Shown: positions 1 to 46,125 of the stretch, one piece after another
Position numbering within the stretch: the first letter of the stretch is position 1
Layout of the letters: the number at the start of each line of letters is the position of its first letter
From: Escherichia coli
GTDB lineage: Bacteria; Pseudomonadota; Gammaproteobacteria; Enterobacterales; Enterobacteriaceae
DNA length: 46,125 bases
Assembly: GCF_965641715.1 (NCBI RefSeq)
Contig: NZ_OZ282456.1
Reading direction: 5' to 3' (one strand)
Notes under the pieces: model-generated
Databases searched by the model: none
What the model was told of the DNA's origin: nothing
The model's input: the letters and a program-made list of their open reading frames with translations, nothing else
Program-made: the position numbers and the translations under genes

Positions 1-849
1 ATGGATAGACCAATGCAGTCTCTACGTTCAGCTTACGTTTGTAATTTGTCGCCGGAGTTCCAGCCTCCAAAGCACCATACGCACAAGCTGCCGCTGGTGT
101 TATCTGATGCTTTACAGCGCATTAATGGTCGTGATCTTACGTGTGAGGTTGCGTTCTACGTTAATCAACCGTCAGAGCGGAAGCGCCGGATAAACGAGCA
201 TCGTCGTCGGGCGATTAATGCTGTGATTGCTGCAATTTTGCACCATGTAAACATCATTTCTAAGCGGGTTCTGGCCAGTGCTGAGGCGTTGGCTGATTTT
301 TGCGGCCTGTCTACCGTATCCGAAGCTGGGAACAAGTCTATAACACGCTGTACAAGGGCGTTGTCGCAACTGAAAGCGTTAGGTTTTATTGATTATGAAC
401 GTCGCTGGGATCGGGTGAATAAACAGTATTGGCCAGCGAAAATAGAGATTCGTGATCAACTGCTGGAAACCGTTGGTATTACTGAACAAGCATGGAGACG
501 TGCGGTTAGCCAGAAACTTAATTACTTCAATGCGAAGAATAGCGAACGGCTTAAAAAAGCGATAACGGAGGCTGATTATAAGCGTATTGTTATTCAGGAG
601 CAGATGGAGAATGTATGGCGTCAGAGGAAGACGGCCAGAGAGATAAAGGCAAAACAGAAAGCAGCGGAGAGAGCTGCGCGTCTTGTTCGGGAAAAGGGAG
701 AGGCCGAACTTCGTCATCAAATCACTAGAGAGGTTAGCCAGGAATTTGCTGATGGCATGTATCCTGGAGCTGACCTTGCATATTTACGATCCCTCGTTGA
801 GCAGCGTTATAACAGGTTAAGAAAGACCTGGAAATCACTCCAGCATTAA
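1..849 (+). CDS. repA: Plasmid replication initiator RepA (IncFII RepA1-like)
   Basis: 282-aa ORF beginning at window position 1; central segment SITRCTRALSQLKALGFIDYERRWD resembles the IncFII RepA1 family as recalled; followed downstream by a DnaA box and AT-rich tract as in IncFII oriR. Confidence 0.7.
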   Translation: MDRPMQSLRSAYVCNLSPEFQPPKHHTHKLPLVLSDALQRINGRDLTCEVAFYVNQPSERKRRINEHRRRAINAVIAAILHHVNIISKRVLASAEALADFCGLSTVSEAGNKSITRCTRALSQLKALGFIDYERRWDRVNKQYWPAKIEIRDQLLETVGITEQAWRRAVSQKLNYFNAKNSERLKKAITEADYKRIVIQEQMENVWRQRKTAREIKAKQKAAERAARLVREKGEAELRHQITREVSQEFADGMYPGADLAYLRSLVEQRYNRLRKTWKSLQH

Positions 850-879
850 CCCACCTGAATGATGAATCCGGTTTTGCCG

Positions 880-1110
880 GAGGATTATCTACGTCGCAAT
901 AAAATAGCTGTTCAAAAAACAATCTAAATTAATTTTCTCTAAACCTGAACACAGTAAAAATATCGCCTTTACAGGCATCGGCTAATAAAGTTATCCACAG
1001 TTTTGATATGTATATGCAAATGGTTTTTTATAATAGATGCACTAAACAAATAAATGCAAAATCACTTTCTTTTATTAAGACTTTCTTTATTTAACTTACG
1101 CAGGCTTTGC
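880..1110. promoter_or_regulatory. Candidate replication origin (oriR-like): perfect DnaA box TTATCCACA at 991-999 plus AT-rich tract 1000-1100
   Basis: Exact DnaA-box consensus about 140 bp after the repA stop, followed by about 100 bp of AT-rich sequence; no ORF. Confidence 0.45.
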
Positions 1111-1492
1111 CTGTGAATATGTTCGCCCTTGCAGCGAGCTAAAGCTCGCGCCGGTTCGAGTCGCTACGCTCAAATATACCTCCCCCGGCACTTGCCGGAG
1201 GCATGGAGCAGCCTGATCATCCTTTTCGAAACGGCGCGTTTCGAACTATACAAAATCAATTTATATAAGGCCGAAATAAGGCCTACGGCCAGGCTTTGCA
1301 GGAGGAAGGGGCGAGCCTTATCAATAAACGTCGATAAATACGCACACAGTAGCCATCAGAACGCGATAAAACGTAAGAAACATCATTTCCTATTAGACAT
1401 AGAAAACTTGTCTTATACGCAATGTAGTAAATTTCTATTGCAACATAGGAAAAGATTTCCTACCATCGTAGATATAATAAATGGAGATGGTT

Positions 1493-5970: not shown

Positions 5971-6130
5971 TGTGATATCTCCAATATATGGAACTATCAC
6001 CGCCATTCGAGGCTAATCAAATGGTGGTGAGCCGTACAGGGTTAGCCTTACCGGACACAATGACGAACCGGCGCGGATTTCTCCGCCCCTGTACGACCCA
6101 CCATAATTTGGGCGTAACAGTGCTCTACGC

Positions 6131-6157
6131 ATAAAAAAACCGCTAACGCGGTATGCG
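6131..6157 (-). terminator. Candidate intrinsic terminator (minus strand) in the antirepressor leader
   Basis: ACCGC-TAAC-GCGGT hairpin with a 7-A run on the plus strand (T7 on the minus strand). Confidence 0.35.
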
Positions 6158-6298
6158 CCATCGTGTTATTCAGGAGGCTAATCCCGACCGTAGATTTTGC
6201 TACGGCTCGGAAAGTGTCCACCAATGGCGCATTCATGTCAATACGGCGGGATTTTAACAGAGACAACCACATAGCGTGGGTTTATTGGTAGGCAGAAA

Positions 6299-6333: not shown

Positions 6334-6715
6334 GCTGATCGGATTCGCGGTCCTTTCAGCATAACGTCGTTGTGTAAACAACCACGCAAGCACAAGCGGC
6401 GTATCTATTCTTACTCAACTGAGGTGAATAGTCCACTATTCATATAAAGAAATTTAGTTCCTTAGTTCATGCAGAATGAAGTTTTTTAACTTCTTCGGAT
6501 GTAATTACATGTAATAAAAGCAATTGTTATTCCTTCATTATGAAGGCGAGGACGTGTAATATGGCTTGGGGCCTTTTCGCCGATTCGCACCCGGGCACCG
6601 ACTTTAAGGAAAGGATCATCCACTTGCCGTACACGCAAGCACAAGCGGAGTGCTTGCTCTCGCGTCATTTTCGTCGGTGGAGATGCCGTGAAACGGCCTG
6701 TAAGGGCCACACAAT

Positions 6716-6836
6716 GAAAAAATACTGTATGTGTATTTTTATCGTTGTTACTGGAGCTTTGTTTACGCCACATGGGGAGGGTTGGAAGATTACTGATAAC
6801 GCTCTGAATGTGACGATAAACATTAGCAGCAAGTAG
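6716..6836 (+). CDS. Candidate small hydrophobic peptide (40 aa)
   Basis: MKKYCMCIFIVVTGALFTPHGEGWKITDNALNVTINISSK; AAGGG upstream of the ATG; terminator immediately downstream. Confidence 0.2.
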
Positions 6837-6841
6837 CGATT

Positions 6842-6864
6842 AGGCCCCTTCGGGGGCCTTTTTT
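6842..6864 (+). terminator. Rho-independent terminator
   Basis: AGGCCCC-TTCG-GGGGCCT hairpin followed by TTTTTT. Confidence 0.55.
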
Positions 6865-15643: not shown

Positions 15644-15720
15644 TATATATTTCTATAATTATATAAATATATAGTTACAACATTCTATGCGCTTTTCTCA
15701 TGGGCGCACGCATCAACCAT

Positions 15721-15812: not shown

Positions 15813-15888
15813 GGCCCCTTAGCTCAGTGGTTAGAGCAGGCGACTCATAATCGCACGGTCATCGGTTCAAATCCGGTAGGGGCCACCA
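15813..15888 (+). tRNA. tRNA with CAT anticodon (Met by anticodon; sequence resembles the lysidine-type tRNA-Ile2)
   Basis: Manual cloverleaf: 7-bp acceptor stem GGCCCCT/AGGGGCC, D-arm GCTC-AGTGGTTA-GAGC, anticodon loop CTCATAA, T-loop GGTTCAAATCC, 3' CCA encoded. Confidence 0.8.
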
Positions 15889-43629: not shown

Positions 43630-44160
43630 TTATTCAGGCTTTTGTGGCCATTCAGGATTTGCCGTATCCACACGGCTGACCAGAACACTGTAGCGTTCCC
43701 ATGCTTCCAGTCGTGTGCGTTCCTCGTCTGTTGCCATATTCAGCCTGACAGCGCGTTCCAGCGGCTGGATGACTGATTCAGCTTCGGAAAGCAATGCGGC
43801 CTTTTGTGATTCGCCTTGTTGTTGCTGTTCGTCTGCCGTATAAATCCGTTTAACTACAGCTCCATCCTTAAACATCCACTTTCCTGAATCATCAGCGCGG
43901 CGGTTGGCTGTAATATCAGGAACCTCAACGACGCTAAAACCTTCAGGGTTAAGCGTGGAGGCATCTTTAGTGATGGCGACAATAATATTATTTGCATCGT
44001 AAACAATCTTTATTGTGTCTGGCTGAAAGTTTTTCACTTCCTCATACCAGTTTTTATCGTCTTCGGACCATAACCAGATAACATCAAAATTCTTTGTTAG
44101 CTGATATTGTTCTTTCGTTTTAGGATTTCCAGACTTAATATTTTTTAAATGCTGCATCAT
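43630..44160 (-). CDS. Tail fibre assembly protein (alternative orientation)
   Basis: 176 aa; paralogue of 43068-43601 on the opposite strand. Confidence 0.7.
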
Positions 44161-45156
44161 TTACACCTGTGCGACGTTATACCATGTGCCATTGATGTAT
44201 TTTTGTATTGGCCTGAAGATGGCTTCATCATCGCCATCTACTTCACCAATGATTCTTAATCCGGTAATTGCGTGTCCGGCTTTTTCATAACGACCACCAC
44301 GCGCCATCAATTGAACAACTCGCGTACCCAGGCGAACATCTCTCACATATCTGGAATCAAAATTGCCATAGTTGCCAGGAATAACTTGCGAGCCACAAAG
44401 CCAGTTACCGTTATTGTCCATGTACGCCTGACCATCGGTGCCATTGGCTGTCCTTGAGTTATTAATCATGTAAAAACCAAACTGGTAGTTACCAAGTCCA
44501 CCGACAAAAAATTTGCGTTCTGCATGGTCTTGTCTTAACAAAGCCTGCGCAGAACTTGTTGATACTGCGTTTCTACCAAAAATGACATTCTGGTTTCGCA
44601 TATCAATCCATGAGGTTGAGCCACTATTAATAGCAAACCTGTTTGCATACACCCAGGCGTTAGTTGTTATATCTCCTGTAACATCCAGACCATGCCCCAT
44701 AGTTATGCGGCCAGTTCTGAGATTAAGCGTAAAGGGACGTAGTGGCCCTATATTACCATTTTCCCCCTCATTCTCTCGTGTAGGGATGATATGCAGGCAT
44801 TCTTCAGAACGGCGAAAAATGGCACCAAAAGATGAATTAAATATCCTCAGTGCATTGACTGTCGATATTTTTACTTCACTGCTGAAAAGAGCTTTAACAA
44901 GAACATACAAAGCATCCCATTTAAGATTCATCAGGTCTTTTGTTGTGGTGCTTTGTTTGCTTCTCCATTTGAAATATTCATTGCCGTTGTCGCCTGTCTC
45001 AAACCACATGTATGAATCAGTGTCACCATCGGCATCATTTTTAAATCCAATCTTCGCCCAGTCAGTATTTCGAATCCAGGCAAGGATTGAGTCATTTTCA
45101 AAAGTAAGCCCACCGGACAAAGTATCGCCATTTTTTTGCACGGCGTTACCAGCCCT
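44161..45156 (-). CDS. Alternative tail-fibre C-terminal segment (silent; no own start, would fuse to the constant part after inversion)
   Basis: Open minus-strand frame continues to the crossover site and encodes LGLQETVN there, identical to the plus-strand fibre at the left site. Confidence 0.65.
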   Translation of the reverse strand, partial: RAGNAVQKNGDTLSGGLTFENDSILAWIRNTDWAKIGFKNDADGDTDSYMWFETGDNGNEYFKWRSKQSTTTKDLMNLKWDALYVLVKALFSSEVKISTVNALRIFNSSFGAIFRRSEECLHIIPTRENEGENGNIGPLRPFTLNLRTGRITMGHGLDVTGDITTNAWVYANRFAINSGSTSWIDMRNQNVIFGRNAVSTSSAQALLRQDHAERKFFVGGLGNYQFGFYMINNSRTANGTDGQAYMDNNGNWLCGSQVIPGNYGNFDSRYVRDVRLGTRVVQLMARGGRYEKAGHAITGLRIIGEVDGDDEAIFRPIQKYINGTWYNVAQV

Positions 45157-45157
45157 G

Positions 45158-45182
45158 TTTACCGTTTCCTGTAAACCGAGGT
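45158..45182. other. Right inversion crossover site (gix/cix-like)
   Basis: TTTACCGTTTCCTGTAAACCGAGGT; contains TTCCTGTAAACCGAGGTTTT, resembling the Gin/Cin crossover sequence as recalled. Confidence 0.7.
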
Positions 45183-45255
45183 TTTTGCGAATTGCCTCTG
45201 TGTCGTCTGAACGATATTTTTTCCCGCTTTTAGCAACAATCGCGGTTTAGAAAGT

Positions 45256-45810
45256 ATGCAATATGGTTATGCGAGGGTGTCAACTTTTGACCAGAATTTG
45301 GAATTACAACTGGAGGCGCTCAGGAGTTTAGGATGTGACCGGATTTTTGAAGATAAAATATCCGGTGCTAAATCAAAACGACCAGGACTTGATAAGCTAC
45401 TTAAGGTGTTACAGCCGGGCGATACGGTTATTGTCTGGAAGCTGGACCGAATGGGGCGTTCTCTGATTCATCTTGTTGATTTACTTAACCATTTTTTATC
45501 AAACAACATTGAGTTTATTTCGATTACGGAAGGGATAAAAATTAGCACTTCAATTGGCCGCTTTGCCTACACGATGCTGAGTGCAGTCGCAGAGATGGAG
45601 CGGGAAAATATGATTGAAAGAACGCGTGCAGGATTGGCGGTGGCAAGGGCTAACGGCAGGATAGGAGGACGCCGCTCAAAATTGGCACCAGAGCAATGGG
45701 AACAGATCGGAAGGCTTATTGCGAATGGTGTTTCACGTAAGCGGATAGCGATTATCTTCGATGTTACCTTATCCACGCTTTACCGCAGGTTTCCGGCTGG
45801 GAATCATTGA
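45256..45810 (+). CDS. Serine recombinase, DNA invertase (Gin/Cin/Hin family)
   Basis: 184 aa; N-terminal YARVSTFDQNLELQ with catalytic Ser context, C-terminal HTH; adjacent to the invertible segment. Confidence 0.85.
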   Translation: MQYGYARVSTFDQNLELQLEALRSLGCDRIFEDKISGAKSKRPGLDKLLKVLQPGDTVIVWKLDRMGRSLIHLVDLLNHFLSNNIEFISITEGIKISTSIGRFAYTMLSAVAEMERENMIERTRAGLAVARANGRIGGRRSKLAPEQWEQIGRLIANGVSRKRIAIIFDVTLSTLYRRFPAGNH

Positions 45811-45941
45811 CTGGAGTTAGGCCAGTAGTATGATGCTCGCAAAACGAGATCCAATTTAGATCCTTTTACTGGTGGATTATCGTTCGATCAGTGAGAGACT
45901 TCGTGCATGACCGAAAGTGTTGTGGTAGAGTTCTCTTAAAA

Positions 45942-45956
45942 CCACGTAACGTGGTT
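45942..45956. promoter_or_regulatory. Operator-like inverted repeat ACCAC-GTAAC-GTGGT
   Basis: Same architecture as the immunity-region operators; between the invertase and the window end. Confidence 0.35.
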
Positions 45957-45994
45957 ATGATTGTGGGTGTCTGGTTGGAAAGTGACCAGATATG

Positions 45995-46028
45995 GAAACA
46001 AAAAGCCCGCAGATAAATCTGCGGGCTT
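45995..46028 (-). terminator. Rho-independent terminator (minus strand)
   Basis: Perfect 10-bp stem AAGCCCGCAG/CTGCGGGCTT, loop ATAAAT, with T-run on the minus strand. Confidence 0.55.
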
Positions 46029-46081
46029 CTTGCGACATCCACGGAAACAAAAACCAACAACAATCCATGGGCGCCTCGACA
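46029..46081 (-). ncRNA. Candidate short antisense RNA (CopA-like) ending at the 45995-46028 terminator
   Basis: Minus-strand -10 TATAAT at 46088-46093 with a weak -35 about 17 bp upstream; predicted transcript about 85 nt; only meaningful if the molecule is circular and this lies in the repA leader. Confidence 0.25.
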
Positions 46082-46125
46082 ACTCCCATTATACGTTGGT
46101 TTTCCGTGGACGCAAGAGCGAACAT

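Follow-up and report, generated by a model that had tools for sequence, protein, structure and literature searches.

The model for replication of IncFII plasmids was built on two plasmids, R1 and R100. Work by Masai and Arai in 1989 and by Bernander and colleagues in 1992, which also underlies the direction of replication assumed below, reportedly placed the start of the R1 leading strand at a 'G site', ~380–400 bp beyond oriR in R1/R100. Plasmid G sites (R100, R6K, and F) reportedly have three conserved blocks, as described by Tanaka and coworkers in 1994. In this study we analyzed a stretch of Escherichia coli DNA of 46,125 bases (contig NZ_OZ282456.1), referred to as the window, which begins with a repA gene followed by a DnaA box, an AT-rich tract, and a row of hairpins. 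Two properties of described origins bear on this arrangement. For DnaA to bind its box in R1, RepA has to occupy the sequence immediately downstream (PMC5883639). In the phage G4 origin a CTG lies 3' of three stem-loops, and its T is where primase and single-strand binding protein (SSB) alone begin a primer; the loops leave ~30 nt to either side uncovered by SSB (PMC6783573). We report here that the hairpins of the window are maintained by compensatory base changes, are structured on the minus strand, and probably act as primase initiation signals on the leading-strand template.

A row of hairpins beside the origin

Hairpins hp0, I, II, III, and IV lie in a row between the AT-rich tract and a motif at 1292–1305. 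The features are as follows.

1101–1120, minus strand: hairpin hp0 (CAGGC-TTT-GCCTG, 1101–1113) and an overlapping inverted sequence resembling a DnaA box, TGTGAATAT (1112–1120); helix 3 of the covariation analysis.
1121–1158, minus strand: block 1, with invariant flanks CCCTTGCAG and GCCGGTTCG around hairpin I (1134–1149); identified by blastn, and helix 2 of the covariation analysis.
1182–1201, minus strand: hairpin II (CCCCCGGCA-CT-TGCCGGAGG), 89% complementary; helix 1 of the covariation analysis, retained in R100.
1225–1245, minus strand: hairpin III, with perfect 9-bp arms TTCGAAACG and CGTTTCGAA around GCG; recurs in two subfamilies.
1280–1290, minus strand: tentative hairpin IV (GGCC-TAC-GGCC), suggested by GGCC-TTC-GGCC in the Salmonella relative L003 and GGCC-TAC-GGCC in locus L246.
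1292–1325, minus strand: G-site-like motif GGCTTTGCAGGAGGAAGGGG with CCTTATCAAT, assigned by its similarity to G4 and its family-wide position.

An original prediction, made from the window sequence, had noted two palindromes here. The one that it placed at about 1135–1150 is hairpin I (GCGAGCT/AA/AGCTCGC, 7+2+7) at 1134–1149. The other, described as a perfect 21-bp palindrome at 1225–1245, does have perfect 9-bp arms; its 3-nt GCG center is not self-complementary, and it is not a true 21-bp palindrome. The hairpins at 1101–1113, 1182–1201, and 1280–1290 are additional to that prediction.

When the minus strand is read 5' to 3', hairpin III is followed by 23 nt, hairpin II, ~30 nt, and hairpin I, so that 115 nt hold three stem-loops, and a CTG adjoins them on the 3' side. 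In block 1 the CTG (1134–1132) directly follows hairpin I and is itself followed by CAAGGGCG. At the place of TGTGAATAT, which overlaps hp0, relatives have TGTGGA(T/A)A. The G-site-like motif reads CCTCCTGCAAAGCC on this strand, the T of its CTG being opposite A1300. Two 5'-CTGCAA-3' motifs, at 1134–1129 and 1301–1296, thus bracket the hairpins on the minus strand. In hairpin II as it occurs in the window, one plus-strand C:A mismatch becomes a T:G wobble when the minus strand is considered.

Perfect inverted repeats with arms of at least 9 and loops of at most 6 occur 11 times in the window versus 1.2 times in shuffled sequences, and only 0.01 would be expected in the 226 nt of 1095–1320. Folding of the minus strand as single-stranded DNA (ssDNA) gave a z-score of −3.4. 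Neither strand has a T-run at hairpin I or III, and no hairpin was found to be followed by a conserved one. A role for the palindromes as intrinsic terminators was rejected on this ground; the weak tail after hairpin II is missing in relatives.

Block 1 is widespread and linked to repA

A sensitive blastn search of PLSDB with 850–1480 identified ~95 plasmids outside the immediate family that share only a piece of ~50 nt, window 1124–1171, at 84–97% identity. They are plasmids of Klebsiella, Enterobacter, Citrobacter, Serratia, and Pantoea. In each case examined the piece was on the same strand as a distantly related repA and ~290–360 bp downstream of it, with different genes in the remaining neighborhood.

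More copies were collected by pattern scans. Scanning of metagenome contigs yielded 120 loci, chosen by a pattern that fixes CTTGCAGCG and CGCGYCGGTTCG, so that these bases are invariant by construction in that sample. With the window and the plasmid and genome loci there were 130 instances of the block, 116 of them genuine. The pattern used for genome contigs, CAGCGN{9,12}CGCGYCGGTTCG, was too loose; nearly all of its matches were chance occurrences in GC-rich genomes, and only those in L020, L070, and L071 were real. A tblastn search located an IncFII-type repA on the same strand 285–590 bp upstream in 83 of the 116 instances, and most of the others were at contig ends. Block 1 was also downstream of an IncFII-type repA in five of five further PLSDB plasmids. 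Many of the RepA proteins encoded upstream of the block are 75–78% identical to the R1/R100 type.

A blastn search with one of these copies found block 1 in at least 3,608 PLSDB plasmids, including 2,203 from Klebsiella, 531 from Salmonella (a pSLT-type plasmid among them), 238 from Escherichia, 221 from Enterobacter, and 99 from Yersinia. The feature column read 'none' in almost every row listed. In the plasmids whose neighborhoods were examined, flanking genes vary, and only repA/oriR is common to them. R100 (L249 40003–40061) and an IncFIC replicon (L008 1191–1249) keep hp0 and hairpin II and have a clean deletion of the hairpin I block, ~50 nt. This deletion is probably the reason that block 1 has no place in the textbook R1 model. 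Text searches for the sequence strings of the block returned unrelated primers only, and no description of block 1 was found in a literature search that left out most subscription journals.

The stems covary and are structured on one strand

Structural conservation was determined with 48 representatives, all with pairwise identities below 90%, aligned with MAFFT in the minus-strand orientation. The three helices were 92.1% paired, compared with 78.5% in shuffles and 34–55% in slid controls, and covariation was 0.384 versus 0.153, a value reached by 0 of 500 shuffles. In a second set of 10 copies found by BLAST alone, and therefore independent of pattern selection, the helices were 95.4% paired, 17 of 21 pairs had changed on both sides, and covariation was 0.567 versus 0.168.

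Hairpin I was 99.7–100% paired, and all of its variable pairs (three in the set of 48) covary; the stem variants GCGAGC/GCTCGC, GCGGAC/GTCCGC, and GCGACG/CGTCGC are compensatory. The same compensatory behavior was found ~30 nt past hairpin I in hairpin II, which was 97.9% paired with five of seven pairs covarying in the larger set. All eight pairs of hp0 changed on both sides in the BLAST-found set. MAFFT aligned hp0 poorly (80% paired), and the 94% obtained by model-based alignment comes from an alignment that leans to structure. Hairpin III occurs 95–115 nt after block 1 in two subfamilies, with stems TTCGAAACG/CGTTTCGAA or GCGAAAAG/CTTTTCGC and a loop of GCG or GCA; three of the nine pairs show two-sided changes that preserve pairing.

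The pairs that were not Watson-Crick showed on which strand the structure is kept. In hairpin II there were 23 minus-strand G:T cells, at five different pairs, versus 0 A:C cells; these counts are phylogenetically non-independent and represent roughly 6–7 separate events. The outer pair of the type-B hairpin III had the same minus-strand wobble bias. Because all of the wobble events are one-sided, the alignments indicate that the element folds as a single minus strand, either ssDNA or minus-strand RNA, and would exclude recognition as a duplex palindrome as well as cruciforms. The suggestion in the original prediction that the palindromes are protein-binding or replication-fork-related sites was thus right in spirit, except that the data point to single-strand hairpins on one strand and not to duplex sites.

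The single-stranded flanks are invariant, the stems covary, and the loops vary, which is the pattern expected for recognition of folded ssDNA. The CTG 3' of hairpin I was kept in 10 of 10 BLAST-found relatives, while the bases around it varied (CTCTG, CTGTAAGGG, CTGCGGGGG, and CTGCTAGGT).

A probable priming signal and its alternatives

The explanation that best accounts for the whole, and that we regard as probable, is that the hairpin row consists of single-strand initiation signals for primase, of the 'G-site' kind, on the leading-strand template of a replicon melted by RepA and DnaA. It is based on observed properties: family membership, conserved layout, hairpin covariation, minus-strand bias, and the invariant CTG. 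Positions 1292–1305 are identical to the G4 primer start at 13 of 14 positions (GGCTTTGCAGGAGG versus GGCTTTGCAGTAGG), and the match falls exactly on the annotated start (NC_001420); block 1 shares just CTGCAA(G)G with the G4 start context. A strict form of the motif, YTNNCAGGR plus a G-run, was present +145–170 or +325–403 nt from block 1 in 50 of 92 related origins, compared with a background rate of 0.007 per 700 nt. After it, R1-like plasmids have CCTATCAA and a CCGGCT-N-CGCCGG hairpin, and the family-wide pattern is GGCTTTGCAGGG...CCTATCAA...CCGGCTNCGCCGG. R100 has GGTCTGGCAGGGCTGGGG ~365 bp beyond hp0, which is reportedly where the leading strand of R1 starts at its G site.

Several results weigh against this explanation. 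The G4 match at 1292–1305 has a z-score of ~3 and is not significant alone. A covariance model of the block found no match in the G4 origin; homology to G4oric was rejected for that reason, leaving an analogy of layout and the short start-site match. Local alignment of window 1096–1480 with R100 beyond oriR scored below shuffles, with no significant similarity; the case for homology of the G-site-like motif therefore depends on its recurrence at set positions throughout the family. Block 1 cannot be essential to this type of origin, given that R100 replicates in its absence, and hairpin III is confined to some subfamilies. The wobble bias would be produced equally by RNA transcribed from the minus strand, and both the non-independence of the wobble counts and the built-in invariance of the metagenome loci described above belong here as well.

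More tentatively, we suggest that block 1 and hairpin II may constitute an undescribed single-strand recognition element, a second primase entry site like that of phage G4, at the edge of the unwinding region. Such an element would be standard in most plasmids of the IncFII family (Klebsiella IncFII(K)-type, Salmonella pSLT-type, Yersinia, Serratia, and Pantoea plasmids, and phage-plasmids) and would have been missed because R1 and R100 carry the deletion.

Two alternatives, both unlikely, would accommodate much of the same evidence. In the first, the row functions at the RNA level after minus-strand transcription, whether as a small RNA, as a structured 3' end, or as a barrier that keeps transcription from downstream genes out of the origin. 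Covariation and a minus-strand wobble of the G:U type suit RNA as well as ssDNA, and in the window there is a terminator-like call over hairpin II on the minus strand. The T-rich tail behind that call is not conserved, however, relatives reading GGGAGCTAC there. No sigma-70-like promoter was found on either strand of 800–1600, versus 2.3 expected by chance, and a search of 1–1600 against Rfam 15, extended to E ≤10, identified no family and gave only snoRNA and microRNA matches at chance level (E 0.2–5.7). Because promoter, Rfam family, and conserved T-run are all missing, and because flanking genes differ among plasmids so that repA/oriR is the sole common neighbor, ssDNA is favored over RNA.

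The second, to which we give the same low probability, is that the hairpins are an assembly site for the PriA-dependent primosome (a phiX174-type ssi) or a place where some other replication protein that binds ssDNA is loaded or pauses. It draws on the same structural evidence, conserved hairpins in one strand of ssDNA beside the unwinding region, and without homology to G4 at the level of the model the recognizing protein could be other than primase. The invariant CTG directly 3' of hairpin I and the likeness of CTGCAA(A/G)G to the G4 start are, in contrast, features of initiation by the primase DnaG. We know of no defining consensus for primosome assembly sites with which the row could be compared, which also counts against this alternative.

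It is less probable still that the palindromes serve as duplex sites where a dimeric protein binds, be it RepA, a phage repressor, or a host factor, or that they form cruciforms. Perfect inverted repeats do adjoin the origin, and initiators often bind partial palindromes. Recognition of a duplex nevertheless predicts the opposite of what was observed, stems that vary freely as long as pairing is kept and unpaired flanks that are invariant; the G:T versus A:C asymmetry is incompatible with a symmetric duplex or a cruciform, and the element is found in plasmids that share repA alone. That the palindromes are chance features of real or decayed coding sequence is effectively refuted: the 123-codon open reading frame (ORF) that spans them (1129–1500), which the original prediction had already called doubtful, matches no NCBIfam or PHROG family and is unannotated in RefSeq relatives, conservation follows pairing and not reading frame, and such repeats are hardly expected by chance; a coding role for this ORF was rejected.

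The replication initiator and origin

The replicon that precedes the row has the following features.

1–849, plus strand: repA, replication initiator of 282 amino acids, IncFII/IncL-M family (Pfam PF02387, NF040977, and PHROG 7060).
867–881, plus strand: short hairpin TCCGG-TTTTG-CCGGA just past the repA stop codon, at the position of the CIS region of R1/R100; the same hairpin is present in R100 and L003, and its function is presumed.
991–999, plus strand: DnaA box TTATCCACA, exact; position and strand are kept in relatives.
1010–1063, plus strand: three repeats with an ATGCA core (1014–1018, 1037–1041, and 1054–1058), putative RepA binding sites; the triplet is present in relatives.
1064–1094, plus strand: candidate AT-rich unwinding region with two 15-nt direct repeats ACTTTCTTT(T)ATT(T)AA and a drop in GC content.

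RepA matches Pfam IncFII_repA (PF02387) with an E value of 1e-43. Its score of 232 bits with the NCBIfam profile RepA_IncFII_LM (NF040977) is above the cutoff of 70, whereas its 79.2 bits with the narrow equivalog incFII_RepA (TIGR03474) are below the cutoff of 446.9, and in tblastn part of the protein aligned with R1/R100-type RepA at ~30–40% identity. By these profiles RepA is a distant member, belonging to the IncFII/IncL-M family and not to IncFII sensu stricto (the R1/R100 type). In RefSeq the repA gene of near-identical plasmids is annotated 43 codons longer than the 282-amino-acid ORF of the window.

The IncFII oriR-like layout claimed in the original prediction is supported by the PF02387 and NF040977 matches and by the same order of elements in R100: downstream of repA, a DnaA box, then initiator-type sites, then the AT-rich tract. 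Assignment of RepA to a family with its origin upstream of the gene was checked for and not found. The exact DnaA box, predicted to lie about 140 bp past repA, begins 141 bp past the stop codon and is the sole exact copy in the window. By itself it is statistically insignificant (~0.35 exact copies are expected by chance, and one-mismatch copies number 14 versus 12.4 expected); its position is significant. Exact TTATNCACA was found in 56 of 90 distinct related origins, and a match with at most one mismatch in 84 of 90, on the same strand and at a fixed distance upstream of the hairpin block. Because place and strand are kept in these 84 origins against a background rate of 0.002 per 240 nt, the comparison identifies the DnaA box as real.

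The ATGCA triplet, with an outer spacing of 40–42 bp, is common to relatives L002, L003, and L005, whose RepA proteins are 28–85% identical to that of the window, and was found even in plasmids with a RepA just 28–37% identical. By analogy with R1, in which binding of DnaA needs RepA just downstream of the box, the three repeats are likely RepA sites. The AT-rich tract that had been noted after the box is seen as a fall in GC content to 22–28% over 1000–1095, and its CTTTTCTTTTA motif is common to L002, L003, and L005. The hairpin after the stop codon, TCCGG...CCGGAGG, is present in R100 and L003 as well.

Plus-strand GC skew was positive in every 3-kb bin of the whole window (0.009–0.21), with no sign change, and nearly all ORFs of at least 150 amino acids are on the plus strand. 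Both are suggestive of a unidirectional fork moving rightward; transcription could give the same skew.

No Ter sites adjoining the origin, as in R1-like relatives, were found in the window. The only exact match to the Ter core in the plasmid, GAATGTTGTAACTA at 15672–15685 on the minus strand, is separated from the origin by 14.6 kb and has a tRNA gene (15813–15885, plus strand) ~130 bp away; it may be due to chance, since 1.5 matches are expected with one mismatch. R1-like relatives (L131, L136, L139, and many others; R100, L249 40077–40090 and 40213–40226) have a Ter-like TAGTTACAACA after hairpin II and an oppositely oriented ATGTTGTAACTA ~130 bp past it. Placed between oriR and the G-site-like motif, the pair would make up a small fork trap, and the stretch that they enclose holds a conserved CCACTGAAAAGCG...GGCC-loop-GGCC block. 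The window subfamily has none of these elements.

The control region and the circular junction

Over the query, the whole window has 99.9% identity with CP055628.1, the record of a circular E. coli plasmid whose length is also 46,125 bp. Position 1 is the repA ATG, merely the point at which the circular record was opened, and all sequence upstream of repA is therefore at the far end of the window. The original prediction of an IncFII-like module at 1–1250 consequently covers the origin half of the replicon; the control half is at the other end, across the circular junction.

45807–46125 and on into 1–849 across the junction, strand not assigned: control region of the replicon, from fold and promoter scans.

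The promoter scan gave a sense promoter-like site at 45807–45834, and there is a Shine-Dalgarno sequence, AAGAG, at 46115–46119. A countertranscript of ~85 nt was predicted on the minus strand, with a promoter-like TTGCGT-16-TATAAT at 46115–46088, a long stem-loop, and then a strong terminator (46027–46004 plus a T-run). The fold of the region has a z-score of −7.8. This predicted minus-strand RNA corresponds to the expected CopA-like countertranscript, by which RepA would be under antisense-RNA control. An Rfam scan of the region gave generic matches below threshold only, and none to CopA. Six-frame reading of the junction found no short ORF ending at the repA start, as a Tap-like leader would, and the sole upstream ORF in another frame runs ~200 nt into repA. 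Neither a Tap-like leader ORF nor CopB was seen in the replicon of the window.

The replicon is carried by a phage-plasmid

About 58 more plasmids of ~47 kb, typed as non-mobilizable, are 95–99% identical to the window. Because relatives of the plasmid carry tail-fibre genes and three Yersinia myophages of 49 kb (vB_YpM_39/41/44) have a region in common with it at 98%, the window is, by sequence, a complete circular E. coli phage-plasmid of 46 kb. Blastn of 1095–1330 against phages matched only these near-identical Yersinia phages and no microvirus. The replicon itself is ordinary, another distant initiator and origin of the IncFII/L-M type on a phage-plasmid.

Other genes were noted in passing. 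The first real gene past the origin (1493–1780, 95 amino acids, PHROG 8351) has weak similarity to helix-turn-helix (HTH) proteins or repressors; it is syntenic in the Salmonella (L003) and Serratia (L005) relatives and absent from other block 1 plasmids. Just downstream of the origin region, 2306–2958 encodes a RelE/ParE-family toxin and an HTH antitoxin, whose homologs are so annotated in L003. Matches at the Rfam gathering level to C4 antisense RNA (6020–6108, minus strand), isrK (6133–6206, minus strand), and ryfA (6567–6864, plus strand) represent immunity RNAs of the P1/P7 style within the phage-plasmid. Immediately upstream of the repA control region, a serine recombinase ORF (45256–45810, plus strand) abuts oppositely oriented ORFs resembling tail-fibre and assembly genes (43630–45141, minus strand). 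This arrangement over 43630–45810 suggests an invertible tail-fibre switch of the Cin/Gin type.

A model for initiation

The theta-replication module comprises 1–1335 plus ~45800–46125 across the circular junction. We infer binding by RepA and DnaA, the direction of replication, and use of either CTG by primase, and propose that they are related as follows. RepA, probably made under antisense-RNA control, would bind the three ATGCA repeats beside the DnaA box (991–999), and RepA and DnaA together would melt the AT-rich repeats at 1064–1094, leading to loading of DnaB. Unwinding away from repA would expose the minus strand as the leading-strand template, which could then fold into hp0, I (1149–1134), II (1201–1182), III (1245–1225), and IV. 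With defined stretches held clear of SSB by the hairpins, the CTG would be presented to DnaG, which would start the leading-strand primer opposite T1133 and/or T1300, with synthesis proceeding rightward around the circle. With the two CTG motifs located on the minus strand, primer extension would be directed away from repA.

The value of the palindromes lies in their context. They belong to a noncoding element of ~120 nt with structural covariation, an invariant primase trinucleotide, and a strand bias. Among the plasmids that carry it are the Salmonella virulence plasmid and the main backbones for resistance and virulence in Klebsiella. It is unannotated and absent from R1 and R100, the two plasmids behind the IncFII model. 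If the element is a leading-strand priming signal, it offers a testable answer to how DNA synthesis starts so near the origin. It would also serve as an annotation landmark for IncFII-type origins and be a candidate determinant of copy number or host range.

Comparison with known systems

The origins of R1 and R100 resemble that of the window in having an initiator of the IncFII_repA family, an origin downstream of repA, a hairpin after the stop codon, and a single DnaA box. The box begins 141 bp past the repA stop codon in the window and 176 bp past it in R100. In both, the box is followed directly by initiator sites, an AT-rich tract, and structured GC-rich DNA with hp0 and hairpin II. Unlike the window, R100 is without the ~50 nt of block 1 with hairpin I and without hairpin III, and its G-site-like motif is ~365 bp from hp0 compared with ~190 bp in the window. 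The window shares with R1 and R100 a GCAGG-plus-G-run motif where the G site of R1 and R100 is expected, and its predicted countertranscript upstream of repA would be a further likeness.

G sites of the plasmid type are likewise primase start motifs downstream of a plasmid origin with conserved blocks, and the pattern GGCTTTGCAGGG...CCTATCAA...CCGGCTNCGCCGG looks like the three blocks reported for them. The window differs in having the first two blocks without the terminal CCGGCT-N-CGCCGG hairpin.

Compared with G4oric, the window has two CTGCAA motifs, and the one that best matches G4 lies 5' of the hairpins on the template rather than 3'. The CTG is 6 nt from the hairpin in G4, whereas hairpin I abuts it in the window. 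The two systems are alike in their overall design: three stem-loops within ~115 nt on the template, and then, 3' of them, a CTG in the context CTGCAA(A/G)G.

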